Origin: Candidatus Portnoybacteria bacterium
GTDB lineage: Bacteria; Patescibacteriota; Minisyncoccia; Portnoybacterales; GWB1-42-6
Length of the DNA: 64,000 nt
Assembly: GCA_028688325.1 (NCBI GenBank)
Contig: JAQTYI010000003.1
Location: 32,116 to 96,115 of the forward strand
Direction: 5' to 3'
Below the pieces are notes generated by a model. The model worked only from the letters and a program-made list of their open reading frames with translations, did not search any database and was not told the origin of the DNA. A program made the position numbers and the translations under genes. The stretch's first letter is position 1; the number at the start of each line of letters is the position of its first letter. Positions 3,916-60,435 of the stretch are shown here, in pieces.

Positions 3916-3919
3916 AAAA

Positions 3920-5263
3920 TCAATCCCTCGCCTTCTGTTTTAAAACTACTAATTCGGTAAGCTTATAAACATCCCCCGCGCCCATAATCACGCAAATGTC
4001 GCCCGGCTGAAGATTTTTACGCAAATATTCCGCTGCCTCATCAAAATTAGACGCGTAAATAATATTTTCCGATTTACCCTGATCCTGCAGGCGAAGGGCT
4101 AATTTTTCCGAGCTCACTTTTTGCCTGATATCGTCTTTTTCCCTCCCCGTCGCGCTGTAAATCGGTAAAATAATTGTTTTATCTGCCGCGCCGAACGCGC
4201 CGACAAATTGGTCAAAAAAATCGTAAGTGCGCTGGTATTGGTGCGGCTGAAAAACGCACCAGAGTTTCCCTCCCCACTTTGTAAAAGGGGGGTCGGGGGG
4301 GATTTTTTTCAATAGCTCCCGCGCCCCCTCCAGCGTCGCTTTTATTTCTGTCGGATGATGGCCGTAATCATCATAAATTTTGGCGCCATTTAATTCACCT
4401 TTATACTCCATGCGCCGCCAAGCGCCGGTAAATTCATTTAGCGCTTCAACGGCAATTTTTTCATCAATGCCCAAAACTTTCGCCACGGCCAGCGCCGCGT
4501 TGGCATTGGAAACATTATGCTTGCCGGGAATTTTCAGATTCAGTTTTAGCTTATTTTCCGAGCTATATTTTTCAACGCGTAGTTTAAGATCCGCGCTTAT
4601 GAGCTTGGCAACATTTTCGTCTTCGCCATTTACAACTAAGATTCCGTCTTCCGGCAAATGCAAAATATATTCGCCGAAAGTTTCCATGATCTCGGGCAAG
4701 CCGCCTTTATAGGTATCCAGGTGCTCTTCCTCAATATTCAGCAGCACCAAAATCTTCGGCCAATAATTCAAAAACGACTTATCATATTCGTCCGCTTCTA
4801 TCACCAGATACTTACTTGTTCCCGGTCTGAAGTTGCTATTGCCCCACTCTTTGAGTTTCGTGCCCAAGATCACCGTCGGGTCCAGCCCGGCTTTCTCCAT
4901 CATCAAACCGATCATTGCCGTCGTTGTGCTTTTGCCGTGCATGCCGGAAACGGCAATTGTGTATTTTTCACGCGTCAGATCACCCAATGCCGCGGCATAT
5001 TTTTGCGTTTTCACGCCAAGCCGCCTGGCTTCAACCAATTCCGGATTATCCTCTTGCACCGCCGCACTAAATATCACGCAGTCCGACTGCGTGATATTTA
5101 GTGCTTTATGGCCGATGTAAATTTTTACGCCCAACTTTCTCAATTCCGCTACTGTTTCGTTTTTCACCGCGTCCGATCCGCTCACTTCGTCCCCTTGCGC
5201 CAAAAAATACCGCGCCAAGGCGGAAACGCCGATTCCTCCGATACCGATAAAATGAATTCTCAT
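3920..5263 (-). CDS. murC: UDP-N-acetylmuramate--L-alanine ligase
   Basis: MRIHFIGIGGIGVSALA...GMHGKSTTTAMIGL Mur-ligase motifs. A family C repeat lies in-frame at 4266-4304 (FTKWGGKLW). Confidence 0.9.
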   Translation of the reverse strand: MRIHFIGIGGIGVSALARYFLAQGDEVSGSDAVKNETVAELRKLGVKIYIGHKALNITQSDCVIFSAAVQEDNPELVEARRLGVKTQKYAAALGDLTREKYTIAVSGMHGKSTTTAMIGLMMEKAGLDPTVILGTKLKEWGNSNFRPGTSKYLVIEADEYDKSFLNYWPKILVLLNIEEEHLDTYKGGLPEIMETFGEYILHLPEDGILVVNGEDENVAKLISADLKLRVEKYSSENKLKLNLKIPGKHNVSNANAALAVAKVLGIDEKIAVEALNEFTGAWRRMEYKGELNGAKIYDDYGHHPTEIKATLEGARELLKKIPPDPPFTKWGGKLWCVFQPHQYQRTYDFFDQFVGAFGAADKTIILPIYSATGREKDDIRQKVSSEKLALRLQDQGKSENIIYASNFDEAAEYLRKNLQPGDICVIMGAGDVYKLTELVVLKQKARD

Positions 5264-20944: not shown

Positions 20945-21100
20945 TTGGATTTGGGATTTTTTTGACATCCGACATCCCAAATATTAAGCACCCCGCATTC
21001 CGGATGTCGGATGTCCCGATATTAATTTTAATATGGCGATGTCCGACAACCTAAAATTCAGAATTCTTTAATATTCGGGTTGTCGGACATCAAAACCCTT
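20945..21100. repeat. Family E repeat, second copy
   Basis: Homologous to 18963-19100; overlaps the first 13 codons of the tracked cysS ORF. Confidence 0.65.
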
Positions 21101-21118
21101 AAAAGATTTATTAAATAT

Positions 21119-22789
21119 GTGCCGATAAAACTATACAATACTCTAACCCGCCGCAAGGAAGTTTTCACCCCGCTCAAAAAGGGCCGGGTGAGTTTTTACG
21201 CCTGCGGGCCGACGGTATATGATTTCTCCCATATCGGCAATTTCCGGACATATCTGTTCGAGGATATTTTGCGGCGGGTTTTGGAATACAACGGATACAA
21301 AGTGAGGCATGTGATGAATTTCACGGATGTGGGACATTTGGTTTCGGATGCCGACGAAGGCCAAGACAAAATGGAAAAAGCAGACAAAAACGCCCTATTT
21401 TTAAAATGCTCAAACTGTAAAAAAGTATTCTTCAGCGGTATCATAGACGCCGGAAAAAACTCAATTCTGAAGAACAACCAGCATAAATGTCCACATTGTG
21501 GTTTTATAAATATTGCTAAAGATAATTCTGCCTATTTTAAATCGGGAGAAAAACCGACAGAAAAAAGCATTTGGCAGATAGCCGATTTCTATATTGCCGC
21601 CTTTAAGCGCGATGCCGCGCTGCTCAACATAGAAAAGCCGGCTGTCTACGCCCGCGCCACCGAGCACATCAAAGAACAAATAGCGCTAATCAAGATACTG
21701 GAGAAAAGGGGCTACACCTATTTAACCGATGACGGCGTATATTTTGACACCTCCAAGCTCCCGGACTACGGGGCATTGGCCAAGCTGGATATTGAAGGGC
21801 TCAAAGCCGGCGCAAGAATTGAGAGCGTGGCGGGTAAAAAAAATCCCACGGATTTTGCGCTCTGGAAGTTTACTCCGAGTGAAACCCGGAGGCAAATGGA
21901 ATGGAAATCTCCCTGGCAACCTCCCGGCAGTCGGGTTCACCCCGAGGATTTACCTCGAGGGGGTAAAGTCATGGGTTTCCCCGGCTGGCATCTTGAATGC
22001 TCGGCCATGTCGCAAAAATATTTGGGCGAGCAATTTGATATCCACGCAGGCGCCATAGACCTTATTCCGGTGCACCATACCAACGAAATAGCTCAGTCCG
22101 AGGCGGCCTACGGCCAAATCCCGGCTCGCTATTGGCTGCACGGCGAATTCGTTCTATTGGACAGCGCCAAGATGGCCAAGTCGCTGGGAAACTTCATCAC
22201 CATTTCCAAGATAGCCGAGAAATTCAATCCGCTATCGTTTCGATATTTGACGCTCACCGCGCACTACCGTTCGCAATTGAACCTGACCTGGGAATCACTG
22301 GAAGCCGCGCAAACCGCGTTAAATAATCTATATCAGCAAACGCGCGAGTTGAAGGAAAACGCCGATCCATTCTGGCCCCTGATTAAAATCGCCGGGGGGC
22401 TGGGACTGGCGGGCAGAAGAACTTCCGCCGAGCTGAAGACAGCCAACCAATACCGGGAGAAATTCCGCGAATTCATCAACGACGACCTGAACACGCCCGA
22501 AGCCCTGGCGCTTGTTTGGCAAATATTGGCTGACCGGATATTGCCGCCAGCGGCCAAAAAGGACTTGCTTTTGGAATTCGATAATCTTTTCGGGCTAAGC
22601 TTGGCAAAAATAAAACCGGCCAGAGTGCCGGAACAAGTAAAACGGCTGGTGGCGCAGCGGGAAGCCGCCCGCCAAGACAAGAATTGGGCCAAAGCCGATG
22701 AATTGCGCGGCCAGATAGCCAAACACGGCTGGCTGGTGGAAGACGCGCCGCAGGGGCCAAAGCTCATAGAAAAACATATCAAAATATAA
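21119..22789 (+). CDS. cysS: Cysteine--tRNA ligase with an inserted C4 zinc-ribbon
   Basis: Start reassigned to GTG 21119 (VPIKLYNTLTRRKEVF...ACGPTVYD). KMSKS-type block KMAKSLGN. Insert CSNCKKVF-x22-HKCPHCGF. Confidence 0.85.
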   Translation: MPIKLYNTLTRRKEVFTPLKKGRVSFYACGPTVYDFSHIGNFRTYLFEDILRRVLEYNGYKVRHVMNFTDVGHLVSDADEGQDKMEKADKNALFLKCSNCKKVFFSGIIDAGKNSILKNNQHKCPHCGFINIAKDNSAYFKSGEKPTEKSIWQIADFYIAAFKRDAALLNIEKPAVYARATEHIKEQIALIKILEKRGYTYLTDDGVYFDTSKLPDYGALAKLDIEGLKAGARIESVAGKKNPTDFALWKFTPSETRRQMEWKSPWQPPGSRVHPEDLPRGGKVMGFPGWHLECSAMSQKYLGEQFDIHAGAIDLIPVHHTNEIAQSEAAYGQIPARYWLHGEFVLLDSAKMAKSLGNFITISKIAEKFNPLSFRYLTLTAHYRSQLNLTWESLEAAQTALNNLYQQTRELKENADPFWPLIKIAGGLGLAGRRTSAELKTANQYREKFREFINDDLNTPEALALVWQILADRILPPAAKKDLLLEFDNLFGLSLAKIKPARVPEQVKRLVAQREAARQDKNWAKADELRGQIAKHGWLVEDAPQGPKLIEKHIKI

Positions 22790-22794
22790 AAATA

Positions 22795-22850
22795 AAAAAG
22801 GATTCCATCGGAATCCTTTTTTCGTTTTCGCGCTTAGGCGCGTTTTTTAT
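22795..22850. terminator. Tandem hairpins forming a bidirectional terminator
   Basis: aaaaaggattccatcggaatcctttttt and cgcgcttaggcgcgtttttt between convergent cysS and the receiver gene. Confidence 0.65.
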
Positions 22851-23242
22851 TGTAAAACCGTTGCCAGTAATCCGCAAATCTCTTCGGGCATTATCGGCTT
22901 GCCCAAACAAGGACAGCCGAGTCCTTCAAATTTTCCCCTTAAAAGAGCCGAATGTTTTATAAAACCGGAGACCATAATAATGGAAATATTCTCGGTTTCT
23001 TTCCGGCTGCGAATAAAGGCCGCCAACTCCAAGCCATTCAAGCCGGGCATAACATAATCCAGCACCGCAGCGACGAGAATGCTTTCACCTTCATTTGAGC
23101 ATTCCATGAGCTTATCCCTGGCTTCATTGCCGTTTACCGCCCGCAAAACCTCTGTTTCGGGAAAGTTGTCATTGATAAGTTCCTCTATCATTCTTAAGCA
23201 CTCCAGATCGTCATCAGCCACCAAAATTTTTTTCGTTTTCAT
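22847..23242 (-). CDS. Stand-alone response-regulator receiver (CheY-like) protein
   Basis: ILVADDD...LDYVMPGLNG...IMVSG...GKP receiver motifs; no output domain. Confidence 0.75.
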   Translation of the reverse strand: MKTKKILVADDDLECLRMIEELINDNFPETEVLRAVNGNEARDKLMECSNEGESILVAAVLDYVMPGLNGLELAAFIRSRKETENISIIMVSGFIKHSALLRGKFEGLGCPCLGKPIMPEEICGLLATVLQ

Positions 23243-23454
23243 TTCTCCTCCTGGCAATGTTAGTTGGCCTCAAAAGAACTTGATAAATTCCGCCCCTTTC
23301 TGCGATAAGAAGATTCTATTCCGAAAAACAAATAAATGCAAGGCCTCTTTTTCAACTTTTACTCCCCACGAAATCCACTTTTTGCCGCAAAACGGCGTAT
23401 TGCCAAGTATCAATGCGATGATATACTGTAATAACGCCAGACCGCTGCGCTAAA

Positions 23455-29418: not shown

Positions 29419-30510
29419 TTATTCTTCGTCCTTTATCGCCGGGCCTTCAATTTGCATGGGCTCGATATCGCTTGTCTTGCCCGTAATTTTCACAACATCC
29501 TTGTCTATCTTGCCAAACTCCTTGTAGGCACGGTTATACATATTAACGGTTGTGCCAAGATTGTTGCCGAGTTTTTTCAGATATTCTTCGTAGCTCCCCA
29601 GATGCTTTTGCAGCATTTCCACATACTTGCGGATTTCCTTGGCCGATTCCTCGATCTGCAACGCGCGCAAGCCCTGCATCACCGTTTGCAGATAAGCGAA
29701 AAACGAAGTTGGCGAAACGATGATGACATGCTTTTCCTTGAACGCGTATTCTATCAAATCGCGCGTATTCACTTTGATGGCGCCCACTTGGTTTATCAAC
29801 AAGTCATAATATATGCCTTCAGCCGGAATGAACATAAAGGCGAAATCCATCGTGTCTTCGTTGGGCCGGATGTATTTGGCGGTTTCGTCTATCCGGTTTT
29901 TCAAGTCCATCTTGAACTGCTTTTCCAGATACTCTTTTTGCGTTTCGTCTTTTTCCTGCAGAATGCGGTTATAATTTTCCAATGAGAACTTTGAATCGAT
30001 GGGAATTATCTTGTCCTTAACAAACACGGCCGCGTCCACGATGTCGCCGTTCTTGAATTCGTATTGCATCTGATAGTTTTTGGGCGGAAGAACATTCTTC
30101 AGAACATTTTCCAAAAAATATTCGCCCAAAACCCCGCGGTGCTTGGGATTTTTTAAGACATCTTCCAACCCCTGCAGCTGATCGGCCACATTCATCACCT
30201 GTTTGTTGGTTTCATCCAGCTTGGTCAGTTTTTCCGTCACATTGATCATCTTATCGCCCATATCTTTGACGATCTTTGAACTTTGGGCAAATTGCTGCTG
30301 GAACATCTTGGCCGAGTCGCCCATTTTGCTATCCACCTGTGTGCCAAAGGTTTGCAAGGTCTGGCGCAACTCTTTCAACTGCTCCTGCATCATCAAAATG
30401 GCCGAGTTATCCTGCGGCTTATCTTCCGGCTTTTTTTTCAGAGTAATATAAATCAGCGCGCCGACAGCGGCCAGAACGACAAATAACAGATAATCTTGCC
30501 ATATACTCAT
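29419..30510 (-). CDS. rmuC: DNA recombination protein RmuC
   Basis: N-terminal transmembrane helix, long coiled coil. HRGVLGEYFLENVL, IPIDSKFSLENY, FMFIPAEGIYY motifs typical of RmuC. Confidence 0.85.
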   Translation of the reverse strand: MSIWQDYLLFVVLAAVGALIYITLKKKPEDKPQDNSAILMMQEQLKELRQTLQTFGTQVDSKMGDSAKMFQQQFAQSSKIVKDMGDKMINVTEKLTKLDETNKQVMNVADQLQGLEDVLKNPKHRGVLGEYFLENVLKNVLPPKNYQMQYEFKNGDIVDAAVFVKDKIIPIDSKFSLENYNRILQEKDETQKEYLEKQFKMDLKNRIDETAKYIRPNEDTMDFAFMFIPAEGIYYDLLINQVGAIKVNTRDLIEYAFKEKHVIIVSPTSFFAYLQTVMQGLRALQIEESAKEIRKYVEMLQKHLGSYEEYLKKLGNNLGTTVNMYNRAYKEFGKIDKDVVKITGKTSDIEPMQIEGPAIKDEE

Positions 30511-30534
30511 GAATTTAATTTAAATTTAATCACC

Positions 30535-30563
30535 TTGACATACACTTATCAACAGCCTATACT
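30535..30563 (+). promoter_or_regulatory. Consensus sigma70-type promoter (TTGACA-17-TATACT)
   Basis: ttgacatacacttatcaacagcctatact read directly. The partly palindromic region also gives TTGATA-17-TTAAAT on the minus strand, upstream of the rmuC ATG. Confidence 0.45.
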
Positions 30564-30596
30564 ATAGGTGTAAGTATCGAAGAAAGGCGTCGACCG

Positions 30597-31412
30597 TTAG
30601 GACGATGGCCTTTTTTCATTTTCTACTACATCTAAGGCAATAATTGGCAACCTACGCCTGATATCTTTATCCACAAAAACATTGAAATTATAGCTTTTAA
30701 AACCATTCATAAATTCCTTAGCTCCCGCGTTATTTTTTAAGTATTCTAAAAACCTTCTTTTATATTTATCACCGCTTAAAATAAGATTGGTTGATAATTT
30801 CAAATCGTAGCTTATTGCTCCAACTATCAAATCCGCTATTTGCAAAAGATCATTTGATTTTGAGTCAAAACGACAAACACCGGCAACTGCTAGTCTCTTA
30901 AATTTATCGTTTATTTTTCTTTTAACATTAACTTCAAATTTAATATCTTTTGGCGTTAAAATATGGTCGGCAATTACCATTATAATCTCGTTATAAGCAA
31001 TGCCAGACTCCAGGACTCTAATTGAGATATCTTCGTATGATTTCCAGGGATCTGCACCAAATTCTCGAAGAAAATACTCCCCCTCTTTGTCTACAGAATA
31101 AGAATTAAAACAAGTACTCCTAGTCGCGAAAAACGCATCTATCGAAAATTTTGCAAAATCTATATTATTCTTAGACAATTTATTAAACTTCATCTCATCA
31201 TAAAAATGACGCTTATTTCTTTCATAGATAATTTTACTGTTTAAATAATATGGTTGAGAGCATTTTATAAACCCGACTGTAAAGAATGGGTCTTTTTTAT
31301 TATTCAGACTGCCGCTCTCGTCCAAAAAACAAAATTTAGTCCAAATTTTTCGATAATCGGTTAAAGAAAGATTATTATTCTCTTTTCCTCTTAAAAAATT
31401 AAAGGCCCCCAT
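30597..31412 (-). CDS. DUF3800-family protein on a markedly AT-rich islet
   Basis: N-terminal FCFLDESGSL and C-terminal LLQIADLIVGAIS motifs characteristic of DUF3800. Local GC is about 30 percent against about 50 percent in the flanks. Confidence 0.6.
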   Translation of the reverse strand: MGAFNFLRGKENNNLSLTDYRKIWTKFCFLDESGSLNNKKDPFFTVGFIKCSQPYYLNSKIIYERNKRHFYDEMKFNKLSKNNIDFAKFSIDAFFATRSTCFNSYSVDKEGEYFLREFGADPWKSYEDISIRVLESGIAYNEIIMVIADHILTPKDIKFEVNVKRKINDKFKRLAVAGVCRFDSKSNDLLQIADLIVGAISYDLKLSTNLILSGDKYKRRFLEYLKNNAGAKEFMNGFKSYNFNVFVDKDIRRRLPIIALDVVENEKRPSS

Positions 31413-31445
31413 TTTTATATTAGTAAATTATCTTATATTATAATT

Positions 31446-32237
31446 TTAACACTTTTTCTTATAGATTAACAGCAACAGAGAAATAGAGAAAATTACTACT
31501 GCTATCCACTGGCTCACGCTCAAAATCCCCCAGCGAGGGTCGGCTAGGGGGCCGGAGGAAACGCGAATGAATTCAAGGAAAAAACGGATGGCGGAATAAG
31601 AAATTAGGAATAATAAAAAGAATAGACCATCTGTCATCGTGAGCCCCGCAGGGGCGTGGCGATCCCGCGATACTGCCGCGTCCACGGAATTGCTTCGTTC
31701 CGCTCGCAATGACATATTTTTTATTTTTTTCTGTAAAAACCAAAACACTGCCAACAACCCGAACCCGACCAGCGATTCATATATCCCCATCGGATGGCGC
31801 GAAATGCCGTCCGGCCATAAAATTCCCCAGGGTAAATTTGTCGGCGCGCCCTGGTGGTCGTTGATTAAAATACAGCCGATGCGGCCAATGCCAATTCCCA
31901 GCGCCATCGGTAGAACAAACAAATCGGCTGTTTTCCAAAAAGGTATTTTGGCCTTTTCCATATACGCCCACCCAAACAATATCGCGCCGATCAATCCACC
32001 CATAAAAGCGGCTCCGCCGCCCGCGGTTAACCGCGCCAGAACCCACGCGCCCGATATTGCGCCAAAAAAAATCGCGACGGCCAGGCCCGCGATTTTTTTT
32101 GGCGCCAGATTTTCTTTCCGGGCCAAGTAATAAAACAATAGATATCCAACGCTAAACCCCAGCCCCGCGAACAAACCCCAGATATAAAGCTTTACGGGAC
32201 CAAGAGAGATTTGATTAATAACAAAATACGGTATCAT
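31446..32237 (-). CDS. lgt: Prolipoprotein diacylglyceryl transferase
   Basis: IGPVKLYIWG...GIGIGRIGCILINDHQG Lgt signature. Start moved to MIPYF (32237). In-frame family B insertion at 31633-31715. Confidence 0.85.
   Translation of the reverse strand: MIPYFVINQISLGPVKLYIWGLFAGLGFSVGYLLFYYLARKENLAPKKIAGLAVAIFFGAISGAWVLARLTAGGGAAFMGGLIGAILFGWAYMEKAKIPFWKTADLFVLPMALGIGIGRIGCILINDHQGAPTNLPWGILWPDGISRHPMGIYESLVGFGLLAVFWFLQKKIKNMSLRAERSNSVDAAVSRDRHAPAGLTMTDGLFFLLFLISYSAIRFFLEFIRVSSGPLADPRWGILSVSQWIAVVIFSISLLLLIYKKKC
31633..31715. repeat. Family B-like palindromic element inside lgt
   Basis: tgtcatcgtgagccccgcaggggcg...cgctcgcaatgaca; encodes RAERSNSVDAAVSRDRHAPAGLTMTD within Lgt. Confidence 0.6.
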
Positions 32238-50775: not shown

Positions 50776-51204
50776 TTACTGCGACGACGAAGGAGAAACC
50801 TGGACATCCGGCCTTATTTGAACCTGGCTGGCAGTGATGCTGCCGTCCGAGTTAGCCGTGCCGTTGGCAACAACCTGCTTGCCGACCGCCAGCTCGTCCT
50901 GAGAAGCGGAAGCCGTCTTTTGCAGCTGGGTTGAAGCTGAATAAAAAACTATTCTGGAACCGCCGTCCCTCAATTTGATTGTAACGCTTTTATCGTCTTT
51001 GGCAATGATCTCACCCGCCGCGACTCCGTCGTTGCGGTTAACGCCTGCGGAAAAGTTGCCTGCTCCGCGCTGGCGCTGGCCGCCGGAAAAATTCTGCGCC
51101 AAAGACGCGGTCTTACCCTGTTGATATTTCATGCCGCCGAAAAAACCGCCCGCGCCAAAGATAAGCGCGCACAGAATGCCGGCTATAATAGTTTTGTTTT
51201 TCAT
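50776..51204 (-). CDS. Hypothetical secreted/anchored beta-rich protein
   Basis: N-terminal transmembrane/signal segment, Gly-rich region. C-terminal domain similar to 55094-55588 (KSVTIKLRDGGSRIVF ... ITASQVQIRP). Confidence 0.45.
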   Translation of the reverse strand: MKNKTIIAGILCALIFGAGGFFGGMKYQQGKTASLAQNFSGGQRQRGAGNFSAGVNRNDGVAAGEIIAKDDKSVTIKLRDGGSRIVFYSASTQLQKTASASQDELAVGKQVVANGTANSDGSITASQVQIRPDVQVSPSSSQ

Positions 51205-51350
51205 AAAAATTAAATTCTGAATTCTAAATTCTAAACAATATTTAATGACCAAATTTCAAAACCGTTTCAATGTTTAAGATTTTTGGATTTTTAATTTTGA
51301 GTTCGTTTGGAATTTAGAATTTAGGATTCAGAATTTTTTATATTTACTGT
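51185..51350. repeat. Family D AT-rich hairpin cluster
   Basis: aattctgaattctaaattctaaa...tttagaatttaggattcagaatttt palindromic arms. Confidence 0.5.
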
Positions 51351-52573
51351 TATTCATATCTTAATGCTTCAATGGGATTCAATTGCGAAGCGCGCCGGGC
51401 TGGATAATAGCCAAACACCACTCCGATGGCCGCAGAAACTCCGAAGGCCAAAAATACCGAAGACCAGGAAACCGATGTGGCGATGCCGGCGAACAAAGAA
51501 ACCAGATAAGCCAAAAGCCAACCCAAGCCGACCCCAATCATCCCGCCAAGAAAAGTCAAAGTTATCGCTTCCATCAAAAATTGCAGATTTATATCCCTCT
51601 TCTTGGCGCCGATGGCTTTGCGCAGGCCAATTTCGCGTGTTCGTTCAGTCACGGTCGTCAACATCATATTCATTATGCCGATGCCGCCAACCAGCAAAGA
51701 GATGCCGGCAATGGAAGCCAGCAGTATTGTGAAAGTACTGGTAACCGTTGAGGCGGTCGCCACGATATCGGCCTGAGTCAGAACGCCAAAATCCGCGGCC
51801 GCAGGGTCTGATATCTTATGCCGCTCCAGCAAAAGGATCGTTATCTGCTGTTGGACGGAAGCCATTGAAGACTGGTCCTGTGCCTCAATGCTGATGGTTG
51901 TTACATAGGCATCCCCTGCCAAGAATCTCTGCGCTGTGGTCAGGGGGACATAAACAATGTCGTCGGGATTGTTGAACCCCGATCCTCCTTTGGCCTGCGT
52001 GATGCCGACGATCTTGAATATTACGCCGTTGATCTTAATTGACTGGCCCAGCGCTTCGGCGCCCTGGCCAAAAAGATCGTCCCTAACGGTCGGCCCGATA
52101 ACGGCCACTTTGGAATACGAGGCCATCTGCTGTGCGTCAATGAACGATCCCTCGCCAACAGCGATATTGCGCACCTCAGGATAGGCCGGGGTGGTGCCGG
52201 TAATGGATGTGTTGGTATTTTGGCCTTTGGCCGTTATTTGATAACGGCGCGTGAGTTCTGGCGCAATCTGCTTTATGGAACTTATTTCTTTCTGGATGGC
52301 GTCCGCGTCAGCCTGCGTCAGGGTCTGGGCCGAGCCGCGGCCAGCGCTCACCTGCACACCGACGCCCCGCTGGGCGCCCGGCGTTACGATGACAAGATTG
52401 GAGCCGATGGATTGGATGCTGGACTGGATGCTGCCTTGCGCCCCCTGGCCGATGGAGACCATAGCAATAACCGAACCGATGCCGATAACAATTCCCAGCA
52501 CCGTCAAAAAAGACCTGATCTTGTTGGCCGACAAAGCGAAGTAGATTTCTTCCAGCAGATCGAAAATAGCCAT
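51350..52573 (-). CDS. ABC transporter permease (MacB/FtsX family)
   Basis: N-terminal transmembrane helix, large periplasmic domain, C-terminal FtsX four-helix bundle. Confidence 0.85.
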   Translation of the reverse strand: MAIFDLLEEIYFALSANKIRSFLTVLGIVIGIGSVIAMVSIGQGAQGSIQSSIQSIGSNLVIVTPGAQRGVGVQVSAGRGSAQTLTQADADAIQKEISSIKQIAPELTRRYQITAKGQNTNTSITGTTPAYPEVRNIAVGEGSFIDAQQMASYSKVAVIGPTVRDDLFGQGAEALGQSIKINGVIFKIVGITQAKGGSGFNNPDDIVYVPLTTAQRFLAGDAYVTTISIEAQDQSSMASVQQQITILLLERHKISDPAAADFGVLTQADIVATASTVTSTFTILLASIAGISLLVGGIGIMNMMLTTVTERTREIGLRKAIGAKKRDINLQFLMEAITLTFLGGMIGVGLGWLLAYLVSLFAGIATSVSWSSVFLAFGVSAAIGVVFGYYPARRASQLNPIEALRYE

Positions 52574-52577
52574 AAAT

Positions 52578-53258
52578 TTATCTTAAAATCTCGTCCTTCA
52601 AAATGCTTCCGTCGCGGATATGGATAATGCGCTTGGCATGCCTGGCCACTTCCGGCTCATGAGTTATCAGAACGATGGTGTGGCCGGCATCGTTGAGCTT
52701 CTTGAATGTTTCCAATATCAAGTCGCCGGTTTTCGTGTCCAGATTTCCAGTCGGCTCGTCCGCCAAAATAAGAGAAGGGTTATTTATCAGCGCCCGCGCG
52801 ATTGCCACGCGCTGCATCTGCCCGCCGGACAGCTGATTTGAAAGATGGTGGAAGTGCGTTTCGGGCAGACCGGTTGCTGATAATTTTTCTTCCGCTATCC
52901 TTACCCTCTCTTCTTTGGAGACGCCCGAATACACCAAAGGCAAATAAACATTGCGGATGACCGAAGCGCGAGGCAAAAGATTGAATGACTGAAAAACGAA
53001 ACCGATCTTATTTTTTCTGATATCCGCCAATTCGTCTTCCGTCAACAAGGCGACATCTTGTCCGTCCAACAGATATCTGCCGCTCGTCGGCGTATCCAAA
53101 GCGCCCAAAATATGCATCAGAGTTGATTTGCCCGAGCCGCTTGGCCCCATTATCGCCACGAATTCCCCGTCGTTTATTTTGAATGACACATTTTTCAACG
53201 CCAAGAATTCCACATTCTCATTCTTGTATAGTTTGGTGATATCGGATATTTCTATCAT
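52578..53258 (-). CDS. ABC transporter ATP-binding protein (MacB/LolD type)
   Basis: Walker [10 protein letters not shown], signature [15 protein letters not shown], Walker [12 protein letters not shown]. Confidence 0.9.
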
Positions 53259-53264
53259 GCTATT

Positions 53265-55082
53265 TTAATTTCCCCTTATAGCCCTATTAGCCGCGCCTCC
53301 ACCGCCCGCGCCGCTAAGGCCGGGAATCCTCAAGCCGGAACTTTGGTAGGGAGAAGTGTTCGTCGTGCCGGAAGTTATGGTTTGAACGATGATGGTGTCC
53401 CCTTCTTTCAGTCCGATGGTAATTTCCGTTGAGGTGTCGTTAGACGCGCCAATCTCCACGGCTTGGGCCTGAGGCAACATTTTCAATGTGACTTGATTGG
53501 CCGAACCGGTCACCGGCTGAGACGCGGATTTATCCGCGATCTCGACATAAGATTGGCCCCCCTGGGTTTTCACGGCGCCGTTGGGCACGACCAGAACATC
53601 CGGCTTGGCATCGATTATTACTGACGCCGATGTGCTCATGCCGGGTTTTATCCTGTCATCCTGCGCGTCCAAAACTATTTGCACATTATAACTTACAACT
53701 CCCTGGGCGACCGTCCCGGTAACATCTATTTGCGCCACATGCCCCGTCAGCGTCAATCCGTCAATAGCGTCAAAAGTGAGATTGGCCCGCTGGCCGATTT
53801 TGACCCTGGCTACATCGACTTCGTTCAGCGATATCACGACGATGCGCTGGCTGGTCACGACAGTGGCCGCGGCAAAACCCGAAGAAACCGAATCTCCTTT
53901 GCCAACATTAATCTTGGCGATGACACCGTCAAAAGGAGCGCGGATATAATAATTCGCCAATGTTTGCTGGGCGTCCGCCAAAGCATTCTGCCGCTGCTTG
54001 ACTGCCAGCTGTTGCGATTGGATATCCAGCGGATCAGCGCCGGCTTTTAATTTTGCCAGCGATTGGGTTTTTTCCGTGATGGCCAGATCGTCGCTCACCA
54101 GCGTGTCTTTGTAATTTTTTATCAAGTCCATGCTGGACGAAATGCTTGATAAATTAGTGTTTGATTTGGCGGTATAGGTTGCGACATTGGCCTGATGTGT
54201 TGCCATCTGCAAAGGCAACGAAGTTCCCCTTGCAGTCAGGCGATCCTTCACAAAACTTAAAAAATTATCCGAACTCTTCACGGAATTGGACGCCAATTTG
54301 AAAGTGTTGTAAGTTTCATTGAGCAAAGCGTCTATCGCGTCGTTGCCCGAATCACGGGTTGCGGCCTTATAATTAAGGAAATTTTTATCGTAAGCTGCGC
54401 GAGCCGCCTGGTATTTGGCGTTGGCATCATCCCTGTAAGTAAAAACCGTCTGGTCGTATACTTTGGCCAGATCGGTATAGTAAGAAATATTATCCTGTTG
54501 CGGGTTGTAACTGGTGCCATAAAGCGCGCTCTGGACGCCGGTAATCACGGTTGGCAAATCCAGAAAAGCATTGGAAATATTGGTAAAAGCGTCCGAGTAA
54601 GCCGCATTCAGACTGTCCTGACCCTTGGCTTTTGCCTGCCGAGCTAATGTCAGCGAGTTTTCGGCCTGAGTTACTGCTAATTGGTCGGCCGGTTGGACGA
54701 GCTTGTCCAAAGATAATTGCGCCGAGTCCAAATTCGCCTGCGCATCGCGAACCGCTTTCTGCGCGTCTTGCGCGTTTAGCTGCACAAGCAACGCGCCGCT
54801 TTTAACCTGCTGCCCCGCAACCACCCCAACGAAAGTCGCCTCTCCCGACGACGCTTTGGCTTTAACATCCACCTGGCTCGACGCCGAGACCTGGCCGTTG
54901 CCGCTGATTGAAGTTACCAGGGTATCCTTTTTGACCGCACCCAGAACATAACGGGTCGCGGCCTGACTTTGGTTTGAGGAACTGTAAAAATAATATGCGC
55001 CAAAAAGCACGGTGATAACTGCGGCTGCTGTTAAAAATTTATGCTTTTGAGCAAGCTCCTTCAATTTTTGCGGATAATTCAT
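53265..55082 (-). CDS. HlyD/MacA-family periplasmic adaptor with extended coiled coil
   Basis: N-terminal transmembrane helix, biotinyl-lipoyl-like half-motifs, about 250-aa coiled coil, beta-barrel C-domain, Gly-rich tail. Confidence 0.75.
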   Translation of the reverse strand: MNYPQKLKELAQKHKFLTAAAVITVLFGAYYFYSSSNQSQAATRYVLGAVKKDTLVTSISGNGQVSASSQVDVKAKASSGEATFVGVVAGQQVKSGALLVQLNAQDAQKAVRDAQANLDSAQLSLDKLVQPADQLAVTQAENSLTLARQAKAKGQDSLNAAYSDAFTNISNAFLDLPTVITGVQSALYGTSYNPQQDNISYYTDLAKVYDQTVFTYRDDANAKYQAARAAYDKNFLNYKAATRDSGNDAIDALLNETYNTFKLASNSVKSSDNFLSFVKDRLTARGTSLPLQMATHQANVATYTAKSNTNLSSISSSMDLIKNYKDTLVSDDLAITEKTQSLAKLKAGADPLDIQSQQLAVKQRQNALADAQQTLANYYIRAPFDGVIAKINVGKGDSVSSGFAAATVVTSQRIVVISLNEVDVARVKIGQRANLTFDAIDGLTLTGHVAQIDVTGTVAQGVVSYNVQIVLDAQDDRIKPGMSTSASVIIDAKPDVLVVPNGAVKTQGGQSYVEIADKSASQPVTGSANQVTLKMLPQAQAVEIGASNDTSTEITIGLKEGDTIIVQTITSGTTNTSPYQSSGLRIPGLSGAGGGGAANRAIRGN

Positions 55083-55093
55083 ATATCGATCGG

Positions 55094-55588
55094 TTATTTG
55101 GAGTTAAAAACCCTTATCAGGATGGCCTCTATCTGTCCGCCGGTGTTGGGATTGCCGACAACTACGACCAATTCGCCGATTTTAAGATCGCCCAATTTTA
55201 TGTCCTGTTGTCCGTTGCGTATTATCGTTTTGTCGGAAACGACCACGATCTTTTCGGGCGTGTTATTGCCGTCCACCACCAGATTATTGCCGTCTATCTT
55301 GATTATCAGGCCCGTTGTGCCGTGGGCGCTGATAAAATCACTGCCGAACATCATCGGCATCTGGCGGAAAAATCCGTTTCTCGGGCCGCCGAAATTACGG
55401 TGATAATTTTCTCCCCAATTATAGCTGAAATTGGCCTTGCGATAGCCCACCGCCATCCCCAATCCGAAAACGCCGGTGATGATTATCAAAAATAAAACCG
55501 CGGCCGTTGTTATTTTAAAAATTCTGGAATGAGCCGCTCCGGCTAATTTTTTGGCGATGCTATCGCTGATTTTTTCGTTCGTTTCCAT
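55094..55588 (-). CDS. Hypothetical membrane-anchored beta-rich protein, paralog of 50776-51204
   Basis: Transmembrane helix followed by IKIDGNNLVVDG...IIRNGQQDIKLGDLKIGELVVVVG. Confidence 0.5.
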   Translation of the reverse strand: METNEKISDSIAKKLAGAAHSRIFKITTAAVLFLIIITGVFGLGMAVGYRKANFSYNWGENYHRNFGGPRNGFFRQMPMMFGSDFISAHGTTGLIIKIDGNNLVVDGNNTPEKIVVVSDKTIIRNGQQDIKLGDLKIGELVVVVGNPNTGGQIEAILIRVFNSK

Positions 55589-55597
55589 ATATTTATA

Positions 55598-56071
55598 TTA
55601 ATTATTAAGTTTAAAAGTCGAATTAAAATTAAGCTTGGGCAAGCTGTTAAATATGAGTCCGGCCGACACCAACAACAATAAGAATCCGGCCATAGTTAGA
55701 GCGAACGGCCAGACGGGCAAAGATTCCAAAAATGACAAGGCAAAATCCTGCCAATTGGCCAGAATCGCCATAGAATCGGAAAAGGCCAAAAATAATATTT
55801 TCAGTGTTCCGGTTTGTTCAAATTGCCGGCCAAGCTCGGAAACGGCAAAAAACACGACCGACAAAGAAATACCGGAAACGGCTAAAGAGCCGATCATTTC
55901 CATCCTGGCATAGAACAGTCGGCGGTGTGAAATGGCCAGAATGATCTTAGGCAGCAAATAAGCCGGGGGCTCTTGGCCCTCGGCTAATATTTCCGGTAAC
56001 ATCTTATCAAGGTGAGCCAAAGAAAAGTCGACGGTTTCTTTGGCATTAAAATTGGTCTTTTTGTCCTTCAT
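55598..56071 (-). CDS. Putative anti-sigma factor (membrane protein directly downstream of the ECF sigma)
   Basis: Call rests on position and transmembrane segments only; start uncertain. Confidence 0.35.
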   Translation of the reverse strand: MKDKKTNFNAKETVDFSLAHLDKMLPEILAEGQEPPAYLLPKIILAISHRRLFYARMEMIGSLAVSGISLSVVFFAVSELGRQFEQTGTLKILFLAFSDSMAILANWQDFALSFLESLPVWPFALTMAGFLLLLVSAGLIFNSLPKLNFNSTFKLNN

Positions 56072-56672
56072 ACCTATATATACGGGTCGATGGTCCTTTT
56101 TGGTGCATTTTGCCGCCCGCAATCCTTTTTCTCAAAAATAGCAAGGCCCGGCGACTCCGGCTTTTTACCGTATCTATAGGTTCTCCCAGCAATTCGGCTA
56201 TCTCTTTGAAGGTCATACGCTGGCCGTAGCGCAGTAAAATTATTTCCCTGCTATGCCCGGATAATTTTGCCAGATGCTCCTGCATTTCCCGGGCTAATTC
56301 TTTCTTGTTTATTTCCTCGATTATAGATTCTCCCGTATCGGCTATCTTGTCCGATAACTGTTCTCCGTCTTTGTCGTTTTCCAACGCCGAAAACGCTATC
56401 GGCTTTTTGCGCCGCAAATAATCCACGCAAATATTCCGGACGATGCGCCACATCCAAGTTTGAAAATTTCTATTTTGATCGAATTTCCTCAGTCCCTGCC
56501 AAACTTTCATGAAAACCTCCTGGGTCAGATCTTCCGCTTCTTTGGCGCTGCCGATGTAACGAGCCGTAAAATTGAACACGCGCTTAAAATAGCGCCTGAT
56601 AAGCGTCTCCAGCGCCTCTTCATTGCCCGTTAGATAAAGCCCGACTAATTGTTCATCGGACAGATCTTTCAT
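56046..56672 (-). CDS. ECF-type RNA polymerase sigma factor
   Basis: Region 2 (DLTQEVFMKVW), region 4 HTH (MTFKEIAELLGEPIDTVKSR). Confidence 0.8.
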   Translation of the reverse strand: MKDLSDEQLVGLYLTGNEEALETLIRRYFKRVFNFTARYIGSAKEAEDLTQEVFMKVWQGLRKFDQNRNFQTWMWRIVRNICVDYLRRKKPIAFSALENDKDGEQLSDKIADTGESIIEEINKKELAREMQEHLAKLSGHSREIILLRYGQRMTFKEIAELLGEPIDTVKSRSRRALLFLRKRIAGGKMHQKGPSTRIYRYEGQKDQF

Positions 56673-56690
56673 GAAAAAAATAAAAGGGAT

Positions 56691-58499
56691 TTATTCTTCC
56701 TGGCCATTACCGTTCCTGATGAATCCGCCGGCCTGCAACGCCCAAAGTTTTTTGTAGAGAGTATCTTTGGCGATGAGCTCTTTATGCGAGCCGCTTTCTT
56801 TGATGATGCCTTTTTCCAGAACGACTATCCTGTCCATCTTCCTGATGGTTGAAAGCCGATGCGCGATGACGATAACCGTTTTGCCTTTCATTAAAACATC
56901 CAGTGCGTCCTGGATAAGAGCTTCCGAGCGCGAATCCAAGCTGGAAGTGGCTTCATCCAAGATTAATATCGGCGCGTTCTTCAAGATGGCGCGCGCGATG
57001 GCTACCCGCTGGCGCTCTCCGCCAGAAAGCTTGATGCCCCGTTCGCCCACATGCGTTTCGTATTTTTTGGGCAGATTATCTATGAACTCGTCGCAATAAG
57101 CCAGGCGTGCCGCTTTTATCACTTCCTCGTCCGCGGCGCTCTGGCGTCCATAGCGGATATTGGCCATAATGGTGCGGTGAAAAAGTATCGGGTCTTGCGG
57201 CACCAAACTAATATTGTTGCGCAAGCTTTCGAGTGTTACCTTTTTGATGTCTTGCCCGTCGATAAGGATATTCCCGCTTATGGCGTCGTAAAAACGCAGC
57301 AAAAGCCGGACTAATGTTGTTTTTCCCGAACCCGACGGCCCCACCAGCGCGATTTTCTCGCCGGCCTTGATTTTTAAATTAACGCCTTTTAAGACCTCCC
57401 GCCCGTCGTTAAAATAAAAATTAACATCATTAAAAACAACCTCGCCGGCCGACACCTCCAGCGGCTTGGCGCCAGGCGCGTTTTTGATATCGTAAGGCAG
57501 TTTCATTATTTCCACCATTTCTTTCATATCGGCGTAGCCCTCGTAGAAATCACGCACAATACGGCTGAATTCCCACAAGCGCATGCCAAGCCCTATAACA
57601 TACATTTGCACCAGCACGAATGTGCCGATGGTTACAACGCCGACCTGCCAGTAGCGGACGGTAAAATATAAGATGATGAATTCTATGATAAAAATAAGCG
57701 CCGCCTGGATGCCGTCCATTCCGAGGTCCGTGTTCCAGTTGAAAGCCGTAATTTTTCTCTGCTCTTCCGTGACTTCCTTAAAATTGTCTTTTTCGCTCTG
57801 ATGGCGGCTGAAAATCTCGATATTGTTCTGGTTGGCGATGGTGTCGGCCAAAACAGCCGTAGTGCGCGAATCGGCCTCGGCCGCTTTGATGCTGTATTTC
57901 AATTTCCAAAGCGAATAAAAATAATTTACGACTATATAAAGCGCAGCCCAACCGATTATGAGTATCGTCAGGCGTTGTTCTATGGACATGGTGATTATCG
58001 CGATACCCGTTAAACGAACAATCAAAGGGACGAGATTCCAGGTAATGCGGTCGGCCAGGCGCTCAAAAGCGCGGGCATAGCGCCCCACGCGCTGGACAAG
58101 CGCGCCGGAAAAATTATTGGCGAAAAAATTGTATGAATGATGGATAAGATAACCGTAGGCCTGCCGGCGCAAAACCGCCATTGATTTTGCCTGGAAAAAA
58201 ACATTGGCGAATGAGCCGACCCGCCAGAAGACCCAGGCGCAAACATTCAAAAATAATATCATCAAGAGTATATCGATAAGCTGGGCCGCCACAATATTTT
58301 TATCCGGCACAAAAGCAAGCAAGTCAAAAAAACGCTTAAAATAAAGCGGTGTTATTATCTCAAAGACGCTGGCGCCGGCAATTCCGGCAATGGTCAGAAA
58401 CATCGCCAGTTTGCTGCTTTTTATGCCATACCAAACATAACCCGCAACATCTTTGAGGCGAACTGGCGGATATTTAATATTGGAATTCTTGTCTTTCAT
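56691..58499 (-). CDS. ABC exporter, fused permease-ATPase (MsbA-like)
   Basis: Six transmembrane helices plus NBD with [38 protein letters not shown]. Confidence 0.9.
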   Translation of the reverse strand: MKDKNSNIKYPPVRLKDVAGYVWYGIKSSKLAMFLTIAGIAGASVFEIITPLYFKRFFDLLAFVPDKNIVAAQLIDILLMILFLNVCAWVFWRVGSFANVFFQAKSMAVLRRQAYGYLIHHSYNFFANNFSGALVQRVGRYARAFERLADRITWNLVPLIVRLTGIAIITMSIEQRLTILIIGWAALYIVVNYFYSLWKLKYSIKAAEADSRTTAVLADTIANQNNIEIFSRHQSEKDNFKEVTEEQRKITAFNWNTDLGMDGIQAALIFIIEFIILYFTVRYWQVGVVTIGTFVLVQMYVIGLGMRLWEFSRIVRDFYEGYADMKEMVEIMKLPYDIKNAPGAKPLEVSAGEVVFNDVNFYFNDGREVLKGVNLKIKAGEKIALVGPSGSGKTTLVRLLLRFYDAISGNILIDGQDIKKVTLESLRNNISLVPQDPILFHRTIMANIRYGRQSAADEEVIKAARLAYCDEFIDNLPKKYETHVGERGIKLSGGERQRVAIARAILKNAPILILDEATSSLDSRSEALIQDALDVLMKGKTVIVIAHRLSTIRKMDRIVVLEKGIIKESGSHKELIAKDTLYKKLWALQAGGFIRNGNGQEE

Positions 58500-58651: not shown

Positions 58652-58680
58652 TTGCCAAAAACAAGCAACGAGCATATAAT
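58652..58680 (+). promoter_or_regulatory. Sigma70-type promoter (TTGCCA-17-TATAAT) upstream of gmk
   Basis: ttgccaaaaacaagcaacgagcatataat, about 40 nt before the gmk ATG. Confidence 0.5.
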
Positions 58681-58720: not shown

Positions 58721-59299
58721 ATGACCAATCGTTATAAAAACATCATTCTGGTAATTTCCGGCACTATGGCCAGCGGCAAGGACGCCGTTTTGCGATTACT
58801 GCGCAAAAATGTTGACTTTTCTTTTGTAAAATCATTCACCAGCCGGCCGCGGCGCCACAACGAAAAAACAAGCCCGCCCTATAAGTTTATTTCGCGGAAA
58901 AAATTCAAAAAACTGGTGTCTAAAAATTTTTTCTGGGAATTTAAAAAATTATACGGACATTTTTACGGTATAGCCAAAATCGATATCCGAAGGGCCTTGG
59001 CGCGCCAGAAACCCGTTGTTTTCCGGGTAAACGAACAAGGCGCAGATAAGATAAAAAGTTTTTTCCCCGAAACTAAATCGGTTTTTATCGCCCCGCCGTC
59101 GTTGGAGGTCGTGAAAGAAAGAGCCGCCAGGAGAAAAAGTGTTCCCCGACGCCTCAAAAACAAGCGCTTGGCCGCCGCAAAAAAACAACTAAATTCCTTG
59201 ACAAAAGACCAGAAATGGGACTATGTTATAGTTAATAAGGACTTGCGCCAAAGCGTGGAAAAGATAGGCCGAGTTATCGGCTCCTTAAAAACTCAATAG
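58721..59299 (+). CDS. gmk: Guanylate kinase-like protein
   Basis: TSRPRR...Y.FIS...F motifs; C-terminal WDYVIVNKDLRQSVEKI matches the GMK consensus. The P-loop is divergent (GTMASGKD). Confidence 0.65.
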   Translation: MTNRYKNIILVISGTMASGKDAVLRLLRKNVDFSFVKSFTSRPRRHNEKTSPPYKFISRKKFKKLVSKNFFWEFKKLYGHFYGIAKIDIRRALARQKPVVFRVNEQGADKIKSFFPETKSVFIAPPSLEVVKERAARRKSVPRRLKNKRLAAAKKQLNSLTKDQKWDYVIVNKDLRQSVEKIGRVIGSLKTQ

Positions 59300-59328
59300 A
59301 AACCGAAACCGGAAAGGAGGTGGTCGGT

Positions 59329-60336
59329 ATGCCAAGAGAGCAAAAAACACATGAAAACATCTCCATCTCTTTGATTTGGGATGTCTGGGACCGGCTGTTG
59401 TTGCTCTTCAACGAAAAACACGGCCTCTGGATGCTGCCCGGCGGCCATAGCGAACCGGAGAAAGGAGAAAATATCACCGCGGCGGCCAACCGGGAAAACC
59501 TTGAAGAAACAACACTGTCTGACATTGAGGGATATCGTTCCCTTTTTTATCTAGAGGACACAAAAGAAGGCCGTCCTCGGGTATTTTTTGTCCACGAAGG
59601 GTTTTATTTGAAGAAGGATCCTCAAGATATTAAGCTTCCCAAAAAACTGCTGAAAAAAGAACATATCAGGGAGGCCAAGTGGTTTTCTCTGGAGAAGCTG
59701 GAAGACCTTCCGCTTTCGCCCATTGCCAAAAAAGCAATAGATATGGCTCTGCCGTTGCTTGACAGACGGAAAGACATCAACTCCAATCGTGCGCGCAACT
59801 ATCTTCAGAAAATCCTGTCTCAAGCGCAAAAAAGTATTAATAACCCCAACAAACTCAAGCAGATAGACCGGACGATTAAAAAACTGGGCGGGCTTATGGG
59901 CGGCCTGGACAAAGAAGGCGGCGGTCCGGCAATCAATTCGCCGGATATCTCCGAAAACAATCACGAGAAAAAAGACCTTGTGATAATAGTTGACGACGAC
60001 AGGTCCATCAGCTCCCTGACCAAAGAATTTCTGGAAAATTTTTACCGCGTCTTCACTTTTGACAATCCGACTGATGCGTTAAAATATTTGGAAAAACTGC
60101 CCGAGGAATCGATTAAGGCGATTCTGGTAGATTTTTATTTTCCAGCGGAAGCTAATGGCAAGACCGGCGTGGATTTCATTAAAAATGTGAACAATCTTTA
60201 TCCCGGCATAAAGACCATTCTCTTCACCGGCGATATTTTGGAGGCGCAAAAACATACCGGCTTATGCCTGCAAAAGCCGACGAGCTTTGAAGAAATCCTC
60301 GGCGCCATAAAGGGCAATGGCAAGACAAAAATCTGA
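59329..60336 (+). CDS. NUDIX hydrolase fused to a C-terminal receiver (REC) domain
   Basis: Nudix box GGHSEPEKGENITAAANRENLEETTL. C-terminal VIIVDDD...ILVDFYFP...ILFTG...QKP receiver motifs. aaaggagg RBS before the ATG. Confidence 0.75.
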   Translation: MPREQKTHENISISLIWDVWDRLLLLFNEKHGLWMLPGGHSEPEKGENITAAANRENLEETTLSDIEGYRSLFYLEDTKEGRPRVFFVHEGFYLKKDPQDIKLPKKLLKKEHIREAKWFSLEKLEDLPLSPIAKKAIDMALPLLDRRKDINSNRARNYLQKILSQAQKSINNPNKLKQIDRTIKKLGGLMGGLDKEGGGPAINSPDISENNHEKKDLVIIVDDDRSISSLTKEFLENFYRVFTFDNPTDALKYLEKLPEESIKAILVDFYFPAEANGKTGVDFIKNVNNLYPGIKTILFTGDILEAQKHTGLCLQKPTSFEEILGAIKGNGKTKI

Positions 60337-60435
60337 AACCCGGCATCTCGCAAAAATTGCGAAATAAGATGCCGGGTTTTTCATTGCAAAAAACCGCCCC
60401 AAGCGCAATCAAGGAGCGGTTTTTCCAAAAGATTA

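Follow-up and report, generated by a model that had tools for sequence, protein, structure and literature searches.

The subject of this analysis is a pair of adjacent genes in a 64,000-nucleotide (nt) stretch of DNA from a Candidatus Portnoybacteria bacterium (contig JAQTYI010000003.1, positions 32,116 to 96,115 of the forward strand), referred to below as the window. The first gene encodes a guanylate-kinase-like nucleoside monophosphate (NMP) kinase, and the second encodes a protein in which a Nudix domain is joined through a linker to a C-terminal CheY-like receiver (Nudix-REC, with REC for receiver). Nudix-REC is a real, conserved but rare protein, and its gene recurrently follows that of the kinase. 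In the reading we favor, to which we assign a probability of roughly 0.55, the operon would combine a divergent guanylate-kinase-like NMP kinase with a response regulator that has a Nudix output, such that phosphorylation of D268 in the receiver switches the Nudix domain, which would share a guanine-derived substrate with the kinase. Together, the two genes look like an undescribed way to place nucleotide breakdown under two-component signaling.

The Nudix-receiver protein and its family

An earlier note on this stretch, made from the sequence alone, had described a Nudix box followed by a CheY-like receiver, and both domains are borne out by Pfam: NUDIX (PF00293) is matched at E 5e-11 (43.1 bits against a gathering cut-off of 21.1) and Response_reg (PF00072) at E 3.7e-8 (33.9 bits against 30.2), with the catalytic and phospho-acceptor residues intact. 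The Nudix box spans residues 38–63 (nt 59440–59517; GGHSEPEKGENITAAANRENLEETTL), and its catalytic residues R55, E56, E59, and E60 are each at least 90% conserved in the family, where the conserved Nudix-domain positions comprise G38, G39, H40, R55, E56, E59, E60, E111, and W118. Structure prediction, which the earlier note had proposed as a check, yields both expected folds. In the AlphaFold2 (AF2) model the Nudix half adopts an alpha/beta/alpha Nudix fold, with a predicted local distance difference test score (pLDDT) of 80–96 over residues 9–146, and Foldseek matches it to NudI, the Aquifex Ap4A hydrolase, YfaO, MutT, and Ndx1 at E 1e-8 to 1e-7 (template-modeling scores, normalized to the target, of 0.65–0.81). 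Sequence and model together place the domain among the minimal MutT-like NTP/ApnA pyrophosphohydrolases, and nothing more specific; a substrate cannot be transferred from the solved Nudix enzymes because identity to them is only 18–25%.

The receiver half carries a complete set of active-site residues, namely the acidic pair D222/D223, the phospho-acceptor D268 (in ILVDFYFP), T300, and K316-P317. On careful alignment, the check on which the earlier note had made its claim depend, the Asp/Thr/Lys set is present, conserved, and in register with solved receivers (2qr3, HupR, CpxR); D223, D268, T/S300, K316, and P317 are invariant or nearly so among the 15 aligned family members. The model gives a (beta-alpha)5 fold of five strand-helix units here (pLDDT 82–96), and Foldseek returns 3crn and the DrrB and PorX receivers. 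Among the matches listed, and with domain order left aside, the nearest relatives of the receiver half outside the family include a set of 202-amino-acid (aa) proteins with an HTH_3-type DNA-binding domain and a receiver (P0153–P0169), for example from Myxococcales.

A linker of approximately 70 residues, kept in all family members and without a Pfam match, joins the two halves. The full-length AF2 model, built from a 40-row alignment, reaches a pLDDT of 83.9 and supersedes an earlier run with a four-sequence alignment (57.8); according to Foldseek, no solved chain spans both the Nudix and the receiver halves. The first linker helix shows a conserved [F/L]-x5-[H/R/Y/K]-[LF]-Q-x-[IV]-[LIM] pattern, in which about half of the members have a His at one position and four members have one at another. 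The linker was also considered as a degenerate DHp or HPt hairpin, and this idea was rejected for want of support: alignment to a DHp profile with hhalign gave a probability of 6.8%, so that the likeness to a kinase H-box helix is superficial, the His is not conserved, and Pfam detects neither HisKA nor Hpt in any of the 15 members.

An exhaustive profile search over 1.84 billion representatives returned approximately 15 clusters (at 50% identity) with the full Nudix-linker-REC architecture, and 11 matches below 1e-30; a word-index homologue search found just four proteins, and when representative genomes of 185,579 species were searched with a four-sequence alignment, a single full-length relative came up. 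Response_reg is present in all 15 aligned members (best E 3.8e-16) and NUDIX in 14, the fifteenth being N-terminally truncated. The clusters are 22–58% identical to the window protein and keep R55, E56, E59, and E60 together with the receiver residues. All named members belong to the Patescibacteria group: Candidatus Portnoybacteria (the window protein, MDD2753731.1), Candidatus Paceibacterota (MFA6177363.1), Candidatus Falkowbacteria (PIP33993.1, UniRef100_A0A2G9ZLD9), and "Patescibacteria group bacterium MAG137". Their database names are generic ("NUDIX domain-containing protein", "hypothetical protein", "CheY-like chemotaxis protein", "MutT"), and no NCBIfam model comes near its cut-off for Nudix-REC.

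Several loci show related but different arrangements. A Nudix-only relative of 176 aa is found in a Magasanikiibacteriota genome. In Desulfocarbo indianensis (locus L016, 2931–8330), a chemosensory-type cluster identified by Pfam (CheR, CheD, CheB, a REC-PP2C protein of the SpoIIE type, and a REC-HATPase_c_2 protein resembling the kinase RsbW) ends in a stand-alone gene for a 174-aa Nudix protein, which overlaps the preceding gene by 4 nt and has a W[MI]LPGGH motif, as does the window protein; here, in Desulfarculaceae, receiver signaling and a Nudix enzyme are associated without being fused. A similar layout, in which receiver-type open reading frames (ORFs) adjoin a Nudix ORF, was seen in L011, L013, L014, and L018 by hidden Markov model (HMM) scan only.

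The partner kinase and its linkage to Nudix-REC

The ORF upstream of Nudix-REC matches the Pfam family Guanylate_kin (PF00625) at 88.7 bits (gathering cut-off 25.2) and aligns over its full length to solved Gmk structures (3tr0, E 2e-24 over residues 8–188). It falls short of the equivalog model TIGR03263, scoring 140.6 against a cut-off of 160.45, and lies far below the cut-offs of the other gmk equivalog models; its NCBI label is "hypothetical protein". Judged by these sequence models, the partner is guanylate-kinase-like and is not classed as Gmk. In a profile search the subfamily forms 14 clusters (at 90% identity) scoring 216–337 bits, and all other matches, mostly Clostridia guanylate kinases, score at most 172 bits.

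Comparison with 106 ordinary guanylate kinases locates what is particular to this subfamily. Its P-loop reads G[TV][MI][ASG]SGKD, with GTMASGKD in the window versus GPSGSGKD in the ordinary enzymes (GPSGxGKD), and it carries the subfamily-specific substitutions T84I, E102R, V105E, and V/C78Y. Position 84 is presumably that of S80 of yeast Guk1, a guanine contact, and given the substitution there the specificity of the kinase may be shifted. Residues R42, R45, Y54, E73, Y82, R134, R138, and R149 are retained, among them the arginines that bind GMP and ATP. The Asp that follows the P-loop Lys (GKD) was considered as a further oddity and dismissed, since 99 of the 106 ordinary Gmks, mostly from Clostridia, have GPSGSGKD; the P-loop novelty is thus confined to GTMA, where the ordinary enzymes have GPSG.

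In seven lineages (the window with its twin contig L033; L002–5; L010; L024; L025/26; L034; and L030/31), Nudix-REC is immediately preceded by the kinase gene on the same strand. Their Nudix-REC proteins are 27–48% identical to that of the window; the gaps between the two genes are 1–70 nt throughout, down to 1 nt in L024. The linkage was also approached from the side of the kinase, by a metagenome scan and a local HMM scan of all 48 loci gathered. Of the eight lineages with the kinase subfamily, seven have Nudix-REC immediately after it; every locus with a kinase above 260 bits continues with Nudix-REC, compared to none of 13 loci with an ordinary gmk. The outlier (L032, 1024–3177) has the most divergent kinase (GVMASGKD, 215 bits) and no Nudix-REC after it. 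There, the kinase gene follows genes for an HhH-GPD DNA glycosylase and a small GerE-type HTH protein and is convergent with an unrelated gene for a 202-aa Nudix protein, a layout that hints at a link to oxidized-guanine sanitation. Across seven modules, the pairwise identities of kinase and Nudix-REC track each other (r = 0.97), which supports inheritance as a module and is no proof of interaction, because the 21 pairs are non-independent and neighboring genes co-inherit.

Within the window, the ORF list gives two same-strand ORFs, at 58721–59299 and 59320–60336 (both +). For the second, translation starts almost certainly at ATG 59329 rather than at GTG 59320, because GGAGG stands 8 nt before the ATG and the identical database protein is 335 aa long. 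The gap between the genes is then 29 nt and holds the ribosome-binding site. A terminator-like hairpin directly after the stop codon folds at −27.6 kcal/mol (z = −5.6), a value equaled by none of 200 shuffles. The promoter candidate upstream is a consensus match only, in a region with six such sites versus 3.5 ± 1.7 expected from shuffles. The two genes likely form an operon of this Parcubacteria-group organism, with co-transcription predicted from the 29-nt gap with its ribosome-binding site, the promoter-like site upstream, and the downstream hairpin with its U-run. The co-transcription proposed in the earlier note is thereby made likely, by the short gap, the operon signals, and the conserved linkage, and its identification of the partner as gmk is amended, the kinase being no ordinary one. 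The features of the locus are collected in the table.

Table. Features of the window and kinase genes of linked loci (coordinates in nt).
Feature	Sequence	Coordinates	Strand	Remarks
Sigma-70-like promoter candidate, TTGCCA-17-TATAAT	window	58652–58680	+	11/12 match; 40 nt upstream of the kinase gene
Guanylate-kinase-like NMP kinase gene	window	58721–59299	+	192 aa; distinct subfamily; P-loop GTMASGKD at residues 14–21
Ribosome-binding site GGAGG	window	59316–59320	+	read from sequence
Nudix-linker-receiver protein	window	59329–60336	+	identical to MDD2753731.1 / MDD4983023.1
Nudix domain (residues 9–146)	window	59353–59766	+	Pfam NUDIX; AF2; Foldseek
Linker (residues 147–216)	window	59767–59976	+	helices 149–169 and 173–198 predicted; disordered stretch 197–212
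CheY-like receiver (residues 217–328)	window	59977–60312	+	phospho-acceptor D268 at 60130–60132
Intrinsic-terminator-like hairpin with U-run	window	60335–60385	+	directly after the Nudix-REC stop codon
Stand-alone receiver	window	22847–23257	−	136 aa (131 aa from ATG 23242); between cysS and dnaB; unlinked to the operon
Kinase gene	L002	365–967		
Kinase gene	L010	7330–7932		
Kinase gene	L024	4415–4999		
Kinase gene	L025	4417–4965		
Kinase gene	L030	4318–4965		
Kinase gene	L034	~3489–4055		

Some neighbors of Nudix-REC outside the window may be recorded here. In L025, BacA follows the kinase/Nudix-REC pair. In the clade of P0010 and P0014 (L020, 6001–8495; L027, 5001–7548), a pyruvate kinase gene lies 191 and 136 nt downstream of Nudix-REC, which has a type IV pilin cluster, LemA, and a Peptidase_M48 gene on its upstream side; pyruvate kinase is another enzyme that converts nucleoside diphosphates to triphosphates, and its adjacency may be coincidental.

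Signaling context, proposed mechanism, and rival explanations

The receiver of Nudix-REC is probably a real, phosphorylatable two-component receiver, and a phosphorylatable response regulator is the best reading of its sequence because the active-site set is complete and histidine kinases lie near relatives. In the Paceibacterota member, a PAS-PAS-HisKA-HATPase_c kinase, confirmed by Pfam, is encoded 75 nt downstream of Nudix-REC in locus L028 (6009–7571); in L029, the downstream gene, for a putative kinase of this kind, begins 24 nt after Nudix-REC and runs off the contig. In L025, Pfam confirms a hybrid histidine kinase (702–3005; three PAS domains, HisKA, HATPase_c, and REC) two genes before the kinase/Nudix-REC pair, with a GH3 glycosidase gene on the opposite strand in between. 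In the corresponding place, L034 has a long ORF (2–2188) with a receiver-type match, from HMM scan only, which is a putative hybrid kinase.

The window itself has no histidine kinase, as the earlier note had stated: a phmmer search with 15 hybrid kinases against all six-frame ORFs matched only the two receiver ORFs, a kinase-core HMM run against the same ORFs with filters off returned nothing, and Pfam found only housekeeping genes among 59 window ORFs, which include almost all those of at least 150 aa. The statement is true but uninformative. Genomes of the candidate phyla radiation (CPR) average approximately 0.29 kinases per 100 genes, and 19% of CPR metagenome-assembled genomes have none (PMC10805038); a missing kinase in the window carries little weight because approximately 0.2 kinases would be expected among its approximately 65 genes. 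The second, stand-alone receiver that the earlier note had placed at 22847–23242 is likewise real, although it lies on the minus strand and its extent is that given in the table. It retains the acidic pair (DD), the phospho-acceptor Asp (in LDYVMPGLNG), Ser, and Lys-Pro, and has no partner nearby.

In the mechanism we propose, D268 would be phosphorylated by a histidine kinase encoded elsewhere in the genome or, alternatively, by a small molecule such as acetyl phosphate. The ensuing conformational or dimerization change in the receiver would travel via the two-helix linker and turn the Nudix domain on or off, a mode of switching for which enzyme-output regulators serve as the model. The Nudix domain would cleave a guanine-nucleotide-derived diphosphate compound to a nucleoside monophosphate, with GTP or dGTP, their oxidized forms, GpnN/ApnA, and (p)ppGpp as candidate substrates, and the partner kinase would re-phosphorylate the monophosphate, so that, when a signal arrives, the two enzymes would together determine how large a nucleotide or alarmone pool is or what it contains. 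An alarmone substrate, as the earlier note had suggested, is plausible because Nudix enzymes that hydrolyze (p)ppGpp are known, namely NahA, NudG, MutT, and Ndx8 (PMC7584652); it would rank no higher than 8-oxo-(d)GTP, GpnN, or GDP-sugars. A bolder version holds that the two proteins form a dedicated, Patescibacteria-specific, phosphorylation-gated nucleotide cycle, in which the Nudix domain degrades a guanine alarmone or (d)GTP-type nucleotide and the co-evolved kinase, its recognition of base or phosphate altered (GTMASGKD, T84I), recycles the product. We consider this version unlikely; if true, response regulators would gain their first Nudix output, and ultra-small genomes a minimal replacement for RelA/SpoT homologue (RSH)-type alarmone control.

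A number of observations weigh against a phosphorylation-switched Nudix enzyme that shares a guanine-derived substrate with the kinase. On the Nudix side, the window protein departs from the canonical box G-x5-E-x7-RE-U-x-EE-x-G-U, having G-x7-E (a two-residue insertion) and T in place of the final G; the best sequence match of the domain in the PDB, Ndx1, reaches just E 5e-4; and no substrate-specific motif or close characterized homologue was found for it. On the side of regulation, the inter-domain geometry of the AF2 model is unreliable (predicted template-modeling score 0.63), and the 64-kb window lacks RelA/SpoT as well as a histidine kinase. On the side of the linkage, the kinase is absent next door in seven of the 14 Nudix-REC lineages examined (P0002; P0004; P0010; P0012, which lies by miaB; P0013; P0014; and P0017), and plain vertical co-inheritance of neighbors would also produce the correlation in identities described above.

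These last points lend themselves to a different account, in which the linkage is inherited synteny without biochemical coupling, the kinase is the sole housekeeping Gmk, and the Nudix substrate is unrelated to it (RNA 5′ ends, NAD-type cofactors, or sugar nucleotides). The intact GMP- and ATP-binding arginines of the kinase fit such a role, as do the half of the lineages without the kinase next door, a co-divergence that neighboring genes show anyway, and the lack of a second gmk among the 59 window ORFs searched with Pfam. An ordinary housekeeping gene would sit less easily with the sharp separation of the subfamily in the profile search, with its occurrence essentially only before Nudix-REC, with substitutions specific to it in the P-loop and at the base-contact position, or with the uniformly short intergenic gaps, and we regard inherited synteny as possible though doubtful. 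The receiver might, alternatively, leave catalysis alone and act as a phosphate sink, a phosphorelay docking module, or a constitutive dimerization domain, with the Nudix domain constitutively active. Most lineages have no adjacent cognate kinase, and the C-terminal receivers of CheV and of hybrid kinases often serve as sinks or adaptation modules; the full active-site set, the K-P motif, and the linker are nevertheless conserved together in the family, the fusion has been retained at 22–58% identity, and in one lineage Nudix-REC stands in an operon-like pairing with a histidine kinase, all of which makes a non-regulating receiver improbable.

Less probable still is a Nudix domain that serves as a non-catalytic ligand-binding sensor, like the NrtR-type regulators, and reports the nucleotide level to the receiver or a phosphorelay. 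The insertion and the missing final Gly in the window box could be read in this manner, and the Nudix clan includes non-enzymatic members (PMC5389931), but R55, E56, E59, E60, and E111 are invariant or nearly so, and distant family members have the canonical G-x5-E-x7-RE-x2-EE spacing, even though the last G varies there too. The rarity of the architecture, finally, is all that would suggest an assembly or gene-calling artefact joining separate genes, an explanation with practically no chance of being right: the ORF in the window is single and uninterrupted, and an artefact is excluded because the same architecture, in approximately 15 clusters, comes from independent JGI, ENA, Logan, and NCBI assemblies. 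A role in defense, as a Detocs-like or nucleotide-depleting system, was also considered and set aside, with no PADLOC match for Nudix-REC and the stand-alone receiver 36 kb away; for the kinase, PADLOC gave weak generic P-loop matches only (E 7e-4 or worse).

Elsewhere in the window, the region upstream of the operon (50776–58499) holds a MacB-type export set (FtsX/MacB_PCD, an ATP-binding cassette (ABC) ATPase, and an HlyD-like protein) with a DUF5666 protein on either side. Next come an extracytoplasmic function (ECF) sigma factor, overlapped by an ORF at 55598–56122 for a possible anti-sigma factor, and after these an ABC exporter. The order of ECF sigma factor, MacB set, and kinase/Nudix-REC recurs in L024. 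A long cysteinyl-tRNA-synthetase-like ORF (21080–22789, +; 569 aa) contains an internal CxxC...CxxC segment (KCSNCKKVFFSG...HKCPHCGF) resembling a zinc-ribbon insertion. At 30001–32000, the GC fraction dips to 0.39 versus approximately 0.46 over a DUF3800 gene (30597–31412) by rmuC and lgt, which could be a small acquired segment.

Comparison with known systems

Receivers are known to gate methylesterases, cyclases, phosphodiesterases, and phosphatases, and are promiscuous fusion partners. CheB (REC-methylesterase), PleD and WspR (REC-GGDEF), RpfG (REC-HD-GYP), and PorX (REC-phosphodiesterase) resemble Nudix-REC in that a complete CheY-like receiver is fused to an enzyme, whose catalysis is presumably gated by phosphorylation; the receiver half of Nudix-REC also has PorX and an HD-domain regulator among its neighbors in structure and sequence. 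Nudix-REC differs from all of these in that the output is a Nudix domain, the receiver is C-terminal, a two-helix linker of approximately 70 residues lies between them, and an NMP-kinase gene travels along. The C-terminal position of the receiver, which the earlier note had called unusual, is uncommon and has precedents. CheV (CheW-REC) likewise ends in a receiver, with an N-terminal part that is a scaffold and not a hydrolase. The same order, with the receiver last, is found in FilR1 (wHTH-DUF1724-REC), whose N-terminal part is DNA-binding and again not a hydrolase (PMC5847659).

On the enzyme side, NudI/YfaO, the Aquifex and Caenorhabditis elegans Ap4A hydrolases, Thermus thermophilus Ndx1 (Ap6A), and MutT share the fold and the catalytic helix with Nudix-REC; these minimal MutT-like enzymes are stand-alone, single-domain proteins without a signaling domain, at the low identity given above. 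NahA of Bacillus subtilis, NudG and MutT of Escherichia coli, and Ndx8 of T. thermophilus act on guanine alarmones, which would fit a guanylate-kinase-like neighbor, and none of them has a receiver; they are alike mainly in the Nudix box, and the targets of guanine alarmones include purine-nucleotide enzymes (PMC7584652). Among these alarmone hydrolases, MutT resembles Nudix-REC only as a generic fold match. The gmk-rpoZ-spoT operon of E. coli puts a guanylate kinase and a hydrolase of guanine alarmones on one transcript, a parallel that is an analogy only: SpoT belongs to the HD-domain RSH proteins rather than to the Nudix enzymes and lacks a receiver. The nearest published link between Nudix proteins and two-component signaling is mycobacterial MutT1 (Nudix plus histidine-phosphatase), also a Nudix protein in two-component signaling; its phosphatase domain dephosphorylates sensor kinases, whereas the receiver of Nudix-REC would instead be acted on by a kinase (PMC12407098).

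No paper on a Nudix-receiver fusion or on a response regulator with a Nudix output was found in the searchable literature, and a Nudix-clan review mentions neither receivers nor response regulators. What stands out most in the present case is that, in Patescibacteria, a specialized kinase subfamily and a response regulator with a Nudix output have stayed paired. These bacteria have very small genomes and few two-component systems, and obtain nucleotides by scavenging. The conservation of a Nudix enzyme gated by a signal, alongside an NMP kinase of its own, suggests phosphorelay control of a nucleotide or alarmone pool in these bacteria. With two genes, or three where the histidine kinase is adjacent as in Paceibacterota, the module is compact, its proteins are expected to be soluble, and it is directly testable in vitro; it would be one of few experimentally tractable signaling outputs in uncultivated Patescibacteria, where such outputs are almost unknown. 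It would add a new output class to censuses of response regulators and a first regulated member to the MutT-like Nudix enzymes. Nudix-REC would extend the known enzyme-output response regulators, such as CheB and PorX, with a Nudix output of which the searchable literature gave no description.

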